Positions 56,948 through 59,900 of a stretch of 64,000 nucleotides of DNA are shown here, one piece after another. The notes under the pieces are model-generated. The model was not told the DNA's origin. It made no database searches and saw only the letters and a list, made by a program, of their open reading frames with translations. Every line of letters starts with the position of its first letter. The first letter of the stretch is position 1. The DNA lies in NCBI GenBank assembly GCA_964553015.1, contig CAZKJE010000002.1, positions 14,175 to 78,174 on the forward strand, in the 5' to 3' direction. Source of the stretch: an uncultured Candidatus Saccharibacteria bacterium. Lineage in GTDB: Bacteria > Patescibacteriota > Minisyncoccia > Phycocordibacterales > UBA9973. Both the position numbers and the translations under genes were made by a program.

Positions 56948-59900
56948 ATGCAGAAGCATGAAAACAATAACTCCAAATCAGAAGCAGCTTTGCGCGAAGA
57001 GCGAGTTTTGGAATTTTGGAAAGAAAATAAGATATTTAAAAAGTCGCTGGAGAAAAAATCCCCAAAGGGAGAATTTGTGTTTTATGATGGTCCAGTTACG
57101 GCAAACTCAAAGCCAGTTTTGCATACAATGCTACCTTTTTCTTTCAAAGATGTTATTCCCAGATATAAAACTATGCGCGGATATCATGTACGAAGGAAAG
57201 GCGGTTGGGATACGCATGGGCTTCCGGTAGAACTGCAAATAGAAAAAAAACTTGGGTTCAATTCAAAAGCAGATATTGAAAATTATGGTATTGCAGCTTT
57301 CAATAAATTATGTAAGGACAGTGTTTGGGAGTACGTTGGGGCATGGAAAAGTTTTACCGAACGAATGGGCTACTGGGCAGATCAAGATAATGCATATGTC
57401 ACATATTATAATAATTATATTGAATCTGTTTGGAATATAGTAAAAAAAATAAATGAGCAGAATCTGCTTTATAAAGATTACAAAGTGGTGCCGTGGTGCC
57501 CGAGGTGCGGTACAGCACTGTCTTCGCATGAGCTCGCACAGGGATACGAAGATGTAAAAGATCTGTCAGTGTATGTAAAGTTTAAGATAACTACGCCAGT
57601 GCAGGAAAATTCTGCCGCTTTACCCGCAAGCGGGCTCCGACACGGACAAAATTTTCCCGCATTGGCTCCGCAGTATATCCTCGCCTGGACGACGACGCCG
57701 TGGACCCTGCCCGGGAACGTTGCCTTAGCCGTCGGCGAAAATATTGATTATGTAAAGGTAAAGAGTGGAGAAGAGTTTTATATTCTCGCCAAAGAGAAGC
57801 TTTCAATCATAACCGAACCATATGAGATAGTGGAAGAGGTCAAGGGCGCGGGGCTAGTAGGGCTCGAATACGAGCCGTTGTATCCATATCTTGCAAATAC
57901 GGTTTCGGATACAGAAAAACCAAAATTAGAAAAGGCATACAAGGTGCACAAGGCAAACTTTGTGACCACAGATGACGGCACCGGCGTGGTGCATACGGCT
58001 GTGATGTATGGGCAAGATGACTTTATGCTCGGAACAGAAGTCGGCCTGCCGAAGCACCACCTCGTAGGTCTCGATGGCAAATTTTTAGCAGGCACAGGTA
58101 TTTTTGAAGGACGATTTGTAAAAGATGAAGAAGTCGCCGTAGATATCATTAAAGACTTGGCGCACCGCGGGCTTCTTTTCAAAAAAGAAAAATACGAGCA
58201 CTCGTATCCGCACTGCTGGCGCTGTAAAACTCCGCTCATATATTACGCGCGGGATTCTTGGTATATCCGGATGTCTGATCCTAGAATAAAAGCCGAAATG
58301 ATAAAGGAGAATAAAGAAATAAACTGGGAGCCGGAGCATATTCGCGACGGGCGGTTTGGGCAGTGGCTGGAAGAAATAAAAGACTGGGCAATATCCCGCG
58401 AACGGTACTGGGGCACGCCGCTGCCGGTCTGGGCCTGCGAAGCGTGTAAAAAAATTGAAGTAGTAGGAAGCGTAGAAGATCTAAAAAGTAGAACCAAAAA
58501 GTCTGGCAATAAATATTTTGTGATGCGGCACGGCGAGGCTGTCGATAACGCCAAGCATTTGGGTGATCCGAAAGGCGATCCAAATAATCACCTGACTGAT
58601 AAAGGGAAAAAAGAAATAATTCTTACCGCAGAAGAATTAAAAAATAAAAAAATTGATTTTATCTTTACGTCTTCTTTTCTGCGAACCAAAGAAACAGCAG
58701 AGGTCTTGAGAAAAGAACTAGGTTTGGAGCAAGAAAAAGTAATAGTTGAAGATAGATTGCATGAACACAATGAGGGAGACACTAAGCTCGTTCGCAAAAG
58801 GATGGCCGACTTTATTTATGAAATAGAAAAAAATTACGAAAATAAAAATATCTTAATAATTTCGCACGGAAATCCTATCTGGATCCTGCAGAAAACCGCT
58901 TTGGGCTTGTCTATAAATAATTTTACAGAAGGCGAGATGCTGCATACCGGCGAAGTCAAAGAATTAGATTTTATACCGCTACCGCATAATGAAAATTATG
59001 AGCTTGATCTGCACAAGCCTTATATAGATGAAATAAATCTTGTTTGTTCATGTGGTGGAAAATTAACACGCACGAAAGAAGTCATGGACGTGTGGTTTGA
59101 TTCGGGAGGCATGTCTTTTGCGCAGGATCATTACCCTTTCGATAACGCTTCCGGTAAATCTTTTGACGGCAAAGAACTTTTATATCCGGCGGATTTTATT
59201 TCAGAGGGCATAGATCAGACGCGCGGATGGTTTTACACCTTGCATGCTGTTGGAATTCTCTTGGGGCGGGGCAAGGCTTACAAAAACGTAATCTGCCTTG
59301 GCCATCTTCTCGACGCTAAGGGCAAAAAAATGTCCAAATCTCTCGGCAACGTCGTCGAGCCGTTTCTTGCGATGGATACATATGGCGTGGATACTTTGCG
59401 TTTGTGGATGTATTCCATAAATCAGCCGGGCGAATCCAAGAATTTTGATGAGAAAACAGTAGCGCTTCTTTCTCAGCAGATTTTTGGCTTGCTTTACAAT
59501 GTGCTTGCGTTTTATGAACTTTATCGCGATGTTTCGCTAGAGCCTAGAGCCTATGGCCTAAAGCCCAGCAATATTTTAGATAAATGGATCTTGGCGCGTC
59601 TAGATGAGTTGACAGAGCTTGCAACCAAAAATTTAGATAACTACAAATTGCTGGAGCCAGTGCGGGGCATGAGAGACTTTATCGGCGATCTTTCTACTTG
59701 GTATTTGCGCCGTTCGCGCGACAGGATAAAATCCTCCTCCGCACAAGGCTCCGGTGGAACAAGGGAAGGAGATGAAGCGAAGGAAACTCTGTACTATGTG
59801 CTAAAAACCTTGGCAAAACTCATGGCTCCGCTCGCGCCGTTTGCCGCTGAAGACATCTGGCTTAAGTTAAAAAATGAAGATGATGAAGAAAGCGTGCATT

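Follow-up and report, generated by a model that had tools for sequence, protein, structure and literature searches.

Why would an isoleucyl-tRNA synthetase (IleRS) carry a histidine phosphatase inside its own reading frame? The question is raised by a stretch of 64,000 nucleotides from an ultra-small, uncultured Candidatus Saccharibacteria bacterium (GTDB lineage Bacteria; Patescibacteriota; Minisyncoccia; Phycocordibacterales; UBA9973; GenBank assembly GCA_964553015.1, contig CAZKJE010000002.1, positions 14,175 to 78,174 of the forward strand), which we refer to at its full length as the window and in which a preliminary description had noted a phosphatase embedded in ileS. The reading that we favour, and to which comparison of sequences gives about an even chance, is that a working IleRS here carries an active phosphomonoesterase of the PhoE/PspA/CobC-like kind, that such enzymes have been repeatedly selected on or beside IleRS, and that the substrate is possibly a nucleotide. 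The host gene is a single uninterrupted open reading frame (ORF) of 1166 aa, and the features that define it as a synthetase and that bound the insert are the following:

56948..60448 (+): ileS, type-2 isoleucyl-tRNA synthetase and phosphatase host, by TIGR00392, IleRS2 structure matches, editing motif and KMSKS
58436..58447 (+): first zinc-knuckle cysteine pair, C497-E-A-C500, C497 and C500 each present in 117 of 120 homologues
59045..59053 (+): second cysteine pair, C700-S-C702, each Cys present in 116 of 120 homologues and degenerate in a relative without the domain
59093..59107 (+): WFDSG strand, second half of the Rossmann fold, with W716, D718 and S719 invariant
59327..59341 (+): KMSKS loop, K794 M795 S796 K797 S798, invariant among homologues

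These homologues are the 120 proteins closest to the window IleRS in a collection of 5.8 billion sequences. The window protein passes the TIGR00392 ileS equivalog model (868.9 bits against a cut-off of 621.4), its Pfam domains tRNA-synt_1, Anticodon_1 and DUF5915 are the usual make-up of a type-2 IleRS, and its best matches in the PDB are IleRS2 of Priestia (P.) megaterium (8c8w, E = 3e-230) and Thermus thermophilus 1ile. The CP1 editing motif WTTTPWTLPGN is conserved, with H349 and D358 invariant. The motifs and the equivalog model together mark the protein as a type-2 IleRS, presumably a working one, and, because the gene occupies the orthologous position in argS-ileS-recO synteny, probably the IleRS of the cell.

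The phosphatase insert spans approximately residues 516–684 and is flanked by the two cysteine pairs. Aligned to 8c8w, residue 514 of the query corresponds to residue 476 of the chain and residue 679 to residue 479, which places about 165 aa at the knuckle where 8c8w has about 2 and bears out the insertion point first proposed. Two CxxC knuckles with a usual spacing of 10–20 aa had also been described; the first pair is indeed CxxC, whereas the second is C700-x-C702, and the spacing in insert-free relatives is about 30–43 aa. The peptides that mark the region (PVWACEACKK at residue 493, FVMRHGEAVDN at 524 or nucleotide 58517, LTDKGKKE at 549, SSFLRTKETAE at 575, IISHGNPI at 637, LDLHKPYIDE at 686 or nucleotide 59003, CSCGG at 700 and KMSKS at 794) all lie in the one 1166-aa frame, and the same architecture recurs across independent assemblies, so that the continuous frame first reported is no artefact of ORF calling and a chimeric assembly was rejected. 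A mobile-element or intein-like origin was likewise rejected, with no meaningful direct or inverted repeats around 58300–59200. The GC content of the insert (0.33–0.36) is below that of flanking ileS (0.45–0.50) and equal to the level of the neighbouring genes, and for that reason is not a sign of foreign DNA.

Searched alone, nucleotides 58490–59005 match Pfam His_Phos_1 (PF00300) with 91.4 bits (E = 7.7e-26; cut-off 21.7), upholding the proposed family, and the domain is recovered within the whole IleRS protein at E = 2.2e-23. The insert alone folds confidently in an AlphaFold2 (AF2) model (predicted local distance difference test (pLDDT) 84.6; predicted template modelling score (pTM) 0.84). 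Foldseek finds 288 PDB matches to this model at E ≤ 0.001, and all 50 of the matches listed belong to the histidine-phosphatase family, headed at probability 1.00 by PspA (4ij5/4ij6), RosC, PhoE (1h2e) and Rv2419c and also including dPGMs and the SixA-like alr0221; a profile search of PDB sequences ranks PspA, PhoE and CobC first. Narrower family models are not reached, neither those for dPGM (dPGM_arch, 56.2 against 225 bits; pgm_1, 27.9 against 81.7) nor SixA TIGR00249 (44.8 against 74.5, the likeness to SixA being one of size and cap absence only), PspA (51.2 against 350) or CobC (48.2 against 162.9), and NCBIfam NF005567 and NF052459 match weakly, far under their family cut-offs (51 against 326 bits). 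No NCBIfam equivalog for dPGM, PspA, CobC, SixA or GpmB is attained by the insert, which is a member of branch 1 of the histidine phosphatase superfamily outside every characterised subfamily. It has the same fold and Arg-His-Arg-Glu-His set as PhoE (G. stearothermophilus 1h2e/1ebb), PspA (H. thermophilus 4ij5) and CobC (6nru, 6e4b), with profile E values of 1.8e-22 to 1e-17, Foldseek template modelling (TM) scores of 0.68–0.77 and an identity of only 19–24%. By contrast with these free-standing, capped enzymes of about 200–210 aa, the window domain is embedded and lacks about 29 aa of the cap.

The domain, its catalytic residues and its linkers are laid out as follows:

58484..58516 (+): N-terminal linker, residues 513–523, KSRTKKSGNKY, mean conservation 0.85
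58517..58969 (+): branch-1 histidine-phosphatase catalytic domain, short cap-less form, residues 524–674, by PF00300, AF2 and Foldseek
58526..58534 (+): R527-H528-G529, phosphate-binding Arg and predicted nucleophilic His, in 119 of 119 homologues and 81 of 81 sequences
58682..58684 (+): R579, second phosphate-pocket Arg (SSFLRTKET), invariant
58763..58765 (+): E606, predicted general acid/base (RLHE), in 117 of 120 homologues and 81 of 81 sequences, aligned with the Glu of PspA 'drl.E'
58766..58798 (+): cap-deletion site, residues 607–617 (HNEGDTKLVRK), where most relatives have G.F.GK...GES and about 29 aa more
58865..58867 (+): H640, second catalytic-pocket His (IISHG), invariant
58970..59005 (+): C-terminal linker, residues 675–686, FIPLPHNENYEL, leading back into IleRS at DLHKPYID, mean conservation 0.77

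The 81 sequences are the window and 80 loci from GTDB, with an overall identity of only 35–60%; all 81 retain the R, H, G, R, E, R and H of the catalytic set. Among the 119 close homologues R527, H528, G529, N534, R579, E606, R618 and H640 are invariant or nearly so, and the catalytic motif set claimed at the outset is present. Mean identity to the window is 48% in the domain against 74% for the rest of the protein. Because the catalytic residues are invariant while the domain evolves faster than IleRS, this pattern points to strong purifying selection specifically on catalysis, and the domain is probably a catalytically active phosphatase. In the predicted reaction H528 would attack the phosphomonoester to give a phospho-histidine intermediate, the phosphate would be held by R527, R579, R618 and H640, and E606 would protonate the leaving group as acid/base.

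The domain had been called complete, which holds for its catalytic core and not for the cap, from which a segment of about 29 aa is lost. The segment from E606 to R618 measures 13 aa in the window and 12 of the 120 homologues, 17–18 aa in 5 more and 41–45 aa in the rest, so that the short form accounts for 17 of the 120. Across the superfamily the cap region shapes the substrate pocket. The linkers (KTKKSGNKY and F.PLPHNENY) resemble the IleRS core in mean conservation, against 0.53 for the domain interior, and because they are as conserved as that core they suggest a fixed docking of the phosphatase with no loose tether.

The architecture extends well beyond the window. PF00300 lies at the same place in 119 of the 120 closest homologues, the named ones being Nomurabacteria, Paceibacterota, Minisyncoccia and Patescibacteria group, which answers in the affirmative whether related IleRS proteins carry homologous insertions. 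A pattern scan of GTDB, with one genome per species, returned at least 474 confirmed matches. We examined the best 80 loci, which belong to Paceibacteria; all of them have the domain, and at least 78 have it within a long IleRS-sized ORF. HMMER over 1.84 billion cluster representatives gave 3212 matches, and for the best 149 (50%-identity cluster representatives) hosts were classified: IleRS sequence stands on one or both sides in 90, and 2 lie in other hosts. The IleRS phosphatase insert is a lineage-wide feature, neither a one-off nor an artefact. Six relatives of 1300–1360 aa (P0014, P0042, P0060, P0068, P0090 and P0101) have the internal phosphatase and end in an HD domain of about 190 aa (35 bits to Pfam HD, with weaker HD_3 and YfbR-like affinity) that replaces or extends the DUF5915 end.

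A second arrangement places the phosphatase beside IleRS. Free-standing Parcubacteria phosphatases of about 195 aa are 45–50% identical to the insert and have the motifs NKYF-x-RHG and ISHG.P.W in common with it. We sampled five Parcubacteria lineages with such a stand-alone phosphatase, and in all five its gene lies directly upstream of an ileS that has no insert (949–989 aa), with a spacing from a 4-nt overlap to 22 nt in four lineages and of 41 nt in the fifth. The synteny is argS ... ileS-recO, as in the window, and one locus has two tandem phosphatase copies. The partner IleRS proteins are only 36–48% identical to that of the window, their HIGH motif reads GVHH, GIHH or canonical HYGH, and three of the five have EMHKS in place of KMSKS. 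Median isoelectric points (pI) are 9.1, and hence basic, for the stand-alone phosphatases against 6.0 for the inserted domains (range 4.9–9.1). These stand-alone phosphatases, of the P0141/P0276 family and annotated as 'broad specificity phosphatase PhoE' or 'histidine phosphatase family protein', are encoded by separate genes and keep the cap, whereas the window insert is embedded and cap-less.

A second class of the candidate phyla radiation (CPR) also carries the domain, with named matches to Gracilibacteria, Peregrinibacteria, Peribacteraceae and Altimarinota. We counted architectures among 120 relatives of one such protein, P0262, at three sites: the zinc knuckle (S1), a point about 70 residues past KMSKS and before the anticodon-binding domain (S2), and a point past WFESG..HYPF (S3). 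One domain at S1 is found in 42, two in tandem at S1 in 15, one at S1 with one at S2 in 14 and three at S1 in 2, and 3 are classed at S3, one of them with two copies. The S3 junction was checked in sequence for two of these three (P0411 and P0498), and the junction NRKLKNTYYLLRHG resembles the N terminus of the free phosphatases, MRRKLKNKYFILRHG. Copy lineages in Gracilibacteria and Peregrinibacteria are 24–33% identical and form separate groups in a rough neighbour-joining tree, with RH kept in every copy. Two further hosts, both rare, came to light: in P0214 (loci L093/L094) the phosphatase is fused to the C terminus of ArgRS in an smpB-argS::phosphatase-recO locus without ileS, and in P0153 (locus L092) it is fused to the C terminus of a Sua5/YrdC protein (TsaC, of the t6A pathway). 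Phosphatases of this kind have evidently joined IleRS repeatedly, in an association that is old and recurrent.

Two ORFs depart further from the common plan. P0122, a 1161-aa fragment on an ENA contig of unassigned lineage, has the N-terminal 417 residues of an IleRS followed by four tandem RHG domains up to the contig end; no KMSKS or WFDSG is seen in it, and it may represent either an IleRS that has been split or domain expansion carried to an extreme. P0215, an IleRS-like ORF of 1066 aa on a JGI contig, includes an IS200-type Y1 transposase (residues 340–461, in the CP1 region), one histidine phosphatase and a C-terminal GNAT; it could be genuinely mosaic or the product of faulty ORF calling.

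The preliminary description knew of no earlier account of a phosphatase within the catalytic core of an essential synthetase. One mention precedes it: the IleRS of SR1 (Absconditabacteria) was reported, without functional analysis, to be interrupted by phosphoglycerate-mutase-family domains and also to hold a Nudix domain (Kantor 2013, mBio 4:e00708-13, PMC3812714). Like the window gene it is a CPR IleRS reading frame with an internal histidine-phosphatase domain, and the window gene differs in that its zinc knuckle hosts just one domain, which is cap-less, and in belonging to another class, Paceibacteria. That one sentence is the sole prior mention of the architecture that a full-text literature search returned, and no functional description was found, to which extent the claim of novelty stands. 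No Nudix box is present among 307 long relatives, and the SR1 Nudix insertion is known from Kantor 2013 alone. In a 2026 survey of 96,219 IleRS sequences the only domains annotated were IleRS-specific ones, and there is no mention of either phosphatase or Patescibacteria. Although the insertion is lineage-wide, the NCBI label of window relatives is only 'class I tRNA ligase family protein'; one JGI record is titled 'isoleucyl-tRNA synthetase/bisphosphoglycerate-dependent phosphoglycerate mutase'. NCBIfam has no model for phosphatase-IleRS and one, NF040702 'ileS_w_GNAT', for an IleRS whose extra domain is a GNAT instead. The nearest parallels among other enzymes are mycobacterial MutT1 (Nudix and histidine phosphatase) and Rv2228c (RNase H and CobC-like acid phosphatase), in which an RHG domain is joined to a nucleotide or nucleic-acid enzyme; the Nudix and RHG domains of MutT1 act in sequence on nucleotides. 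Unlike the window protein, with its insertion into the catalytic core, both are end-to-end fusions and neither involves an aminoacyl-tRNA synthetase (aaRS). The architecture is abundant in databases and was noted once, in 2013; the comparative pattern is a new result.

How might such an enzyme have come to reside in IleRS, and on what would it act? In the account that we favour, the insert would descend from the phosphatase gene found directly upstream of ileS in other Parcubacteria and would be no accidental passenger, and the hairpin of the zinc knuckle, between the ISRxRxWGxPxP strand and the WFDSG strand, would host a trimmed phosphatase. We take this hairpin to be CP3 in IleRS/ValRS nomenclature. 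The domain would not be needed for aminoacylation itself. Because phosphatases have joined IleRS repeatedly, selection appears to favour phosphatase activity on or beside it. As to substrate, we lean weakly towards a small phosphoester of nucleotide type, made or bound at the adenylate-forming enzyme, rather than tRNA or a phosphoprotein. We lean this way because the other domains acquired by CPR IleRS (HD with HD_3/YfbR-like affinity; SR1 Nudix) belong to nucleotide-hydrolase superfamilies, because the hosts IleRS, ArgRS and TsaC all split ATP to AMP and pyrophosphate, and because the inserted domains, not being basic, are unlikely to bind RNA.

Several observations weigh against this reading. 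One close relative, P0036 (GCA_016186435.1), whose argS, MBL and recO genes are 84–89% identical to those of the window, has an IleRS from which the domain has been cleanly removed; the scar consists of KRSGGQ from the N-terminal linker, LPKNEKD from the C-terminal linker and a second Cys pair that is degenerate, and the link between IleRS and phosphatase is dispensable. Likewise, 44 of the 120 P0262 relatives have no domain, no phosphatase gene adjoins ileS in two Peregrinibacteria whose ileS is insert-less, and the ArgRS fusion persists in a lineage whose locus no longer contains ileS. Among the closest solved relatives are non-nucleotide phosphatases, namely phosphoserine phosphatase PspA and a glucosyl-3-phosphoglycerate phosphatase, and given these and the lack of any equivalog match the substrate class is not readable from sequence. 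Structure prediction, confident for the insert, gave for the whole protein (AF2, 113 homologues) a pTM of 0.41 with Rossmann pLDDT below 50, from which no geometry or pocket orientation is derivable. Finally, inherited argS-ileS-recO synteny could explain part of the adjacency without functional coupling.

A stronger form of the proposal, which we consider unlikely though well worth holding in mind, is that the synthetase has in the phosphatase a third catalytic site, one coupled to aminoacylation and acting in cis on something made or bound at the IleRS active site. Candidate substrates would be a nucleotide by-product of adenylate chemistry (in concert with the Nudix and HD domains of other CPR IleRS), a poison that mimics the adenylate and is phosphorylated, or tRNA-Ile phosphorylated at its 3′ end.

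Among the alternatives to selection on or beside IleRS, the one that survives best, itself unlikely yet a serious contender, is that an ordinary housekeeping phosphatase of metabolism, for example for phosphoserine or a sugar phosphate, hitch-hikes on ileS for constitutive co-expression in a reduced genome poor in regulators, with no link to aminoacylation. The best solved or curated relatives are small-molecule metabolic phosphatases; argS-[phosphatase]-ileS-recO is inherited synteny, in which a nearby gene is the likeliest source of DNA for a local rearrangement; the ArgRS fusion remains where ileS is gone and the domain is readily lost; and no second family member is seen within the 64 kb of the window, so that the insert could be the working copy of the cell. 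It is harder to reconcile with lineages only 24–33% identical having entered IleRS at three internal sites and multiplied there, with the tally of 90 IleRS-linked domains among the best 149 representatives and 2 in other hosts, both of them adenylate-forming enzymes of tRNA pathways, or with linkers conserved like the enzyme core; an in-frame internal insertion is, moreover, much harder to achieve than an end-to-end fusion.

Repair of tRNA ends, which we judge improbable, would have the domain remove a 2′- or 3′-phosphate (or an opened 2′,3′-cyclic phosphate product, or pyrophosphate) from A76 of tRNA-Ile, making damaged or toxin-modified tRNA chargeable. Every insertion site lies within or close to the catalytic body, by which the acceptor end is handled, tRNA is bound by two of the partners, IleRS and ArgRS, and some relatives add an HD domain, a fold that in the CCA-adding enzyme of E. 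coli gives 2′,3′-cyclic phosphodiesterase and phosphatase activity. Against this, the inserts have no basic character, small molecules are the substrates of the closest characterised relatives, there is no reason for tRNA-Ile alone to need repair, and the third partner, TsaC, to our knowledge does not bind tRNA.

Very improbable, too, is a self-protecting protein phosphatase that reverses inhibitory phosphorylation of IleRS, for example by kinase toxins of the HipA type, which phosphorylate the KMSKS-loop serine of GltX and TrpS. The superfamily does contain protein phosphatases (SixA, PGAM5 and Sts-1), loss of the cap leaves the window copy with a more open, SixA-like core, and alr0221 is among the Foldseek matches. 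Yet most relatives keep the cap, the SixA model stays below its cut-off, the EMHKS loop of three of the five operon-type partners means that the serine targeted by HipA-type toxins is not conserved, and no kinase is seen in the sampled neighbourhoods. A purely structural insert without activity, or an artefact of assembly or frameshift, is effectively refuted: the domain does evolve faster than the rest of the protein and can be lost, but hundreds of assemblies show the same architecture independently, no catalytic residue varies across the divergent set and the ORF is continuous.

The synthetase itself has further peculiarities. Of its class I signatures KMSKS is intact, and the HIGH position reads VLHT:

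57116..57127 (+): HIGH-motif position, V57-L-H-T60 in place of HxGH, by alignment to 8c8u/8c8w

Among the 120 homologues this position is GIHH in 80, VLHT in 32, ALHH in 4, PLHS in 2, HIGH in 1 and GVHH in 1. In the VLHT forms, which include the window and P0036, and in the PLHS forms the fourth-position His is gone too, and the helix around the motif is wholly remodelled (PVTANSKPVLHTMLPFSF versus PPTANGKPGIHHLEARAF). Extra domains and remodelled active-site motifs are both known from IleRS2. G/AXHH is a swapped HIGH motif tied to mupirocin hyper-resistance in IleRS2 (Brkic 2023, PMC10485003). Like those remodelled enzymes most window relatives are GIHH, whereas VLHT goes beyond G/AXHH, with neither Gly or Ala at the first position nor His at the fourth and only the third-position His kept. 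In the aaRS literature searched we found no description of a class I synthetase with one His left in the HIGH motif. That the unusual HIGH motif is tied to the phosphatase was rejected, given the range of motifs, canonical HYGH included, in the operon-type partners. The window IleRS has two extra segments rich in Ala, Gly, Pro and Ser and in GC, at 57587–57658 (residues 214–237, TTPVQENSAALPASGLRHGQNFPALAPQ) and about 59729–59785 (residues 928–946, SSSAQGSGGTREGDEAKE); neither occurs in P. megaterium IleRS2 or in the family consensus, the first has an AF2 pLDDT below 50, and where that first segment stands P0039 and similar relatives carry another low-complexity insertion.

Upstream of ileS, at 56613–56947, a promoter-like TTGACT-16-AATTAT precedes a GC-rich structured leader of about 285 nt (minimum free energy −95 kcal/mol, z −2.3), which ends in a strong terminator hairpin (56884–56905) and T run about 35 nt before the ileS ATG. 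The leader looks like an attenuator; no T-box RF00230 or other Rfam match is present at E ≤ 1 on 56300–57000, and none of the fetched loci has a homologue of it. Between argS (51771–53486) and ileS, genes at 53512–56344 encode an LCAT/alpha-beta-hydrolase-like protein of 817 aa that looks secreted and a membrane protein of 125 aa, two extra genes wedged into an otherwise conserved argS-ileS junction; in a close relative, L081, the argS-ileS spacer is only 31 nt. Downstream, at 60438–62294, a HAD_2-family hydrolase gene, whose TTG start precedes the ileS stop codon by 11 nt, is followed by the gene of an MBL-fold hydrolase and by recO. L081 has a MazG-like gene added downstream and, immediately before argS, genes for NUDIX, dUTPase and thymidylate kinase. 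Given the HAD_2 and MBL genes, and the MazG-like, NUDIX and dUTPase genes of L081, the ileS neighbourhood appears rich in nucleotide and phosphoester hydrolases. Elsewhere in the window, a tRNA-Ile gene at 43989–44062 (+) has the anticodon UAU, not the lysidine-requiring CAU, so that AUA would be read by an unmodified-type UAU tRNA, which IleRS must accept; a tmRNA gene at 39143–39535 (−) is of ordinary full length (Rfam, 119.6 bits).

The aaRS field is familiar with terminal appended domains, editing domains and small lineage-specific insertions, and a second, unrelated hydrolase site within the Rossmann body of an essential synthetase is unusual, the more so when its catalytic residues stay invariant over hundreds of species. 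The comparative pattern, comprising the operon form, three insertion sites, tandem copies, ArgRS and TsaC fusions and a clean deletion, likely reflects a real functional partnership, and it supplies natural contrasts for study, with and without the domain and fused or separate. If the partnership were one of co-expression only, it would still illustrate clearly how reduced genomes give a protein several functions by inserting a domain internally. Were the activity coupled to aminoacylation, it would represent a new kind of aaRS activity in housekeeping, repair or resistance beside synthesis and editing, and would bear on how translation is managed in CPR bacteria, in which nucleotide and amino-acid biosynthesis are lacking.

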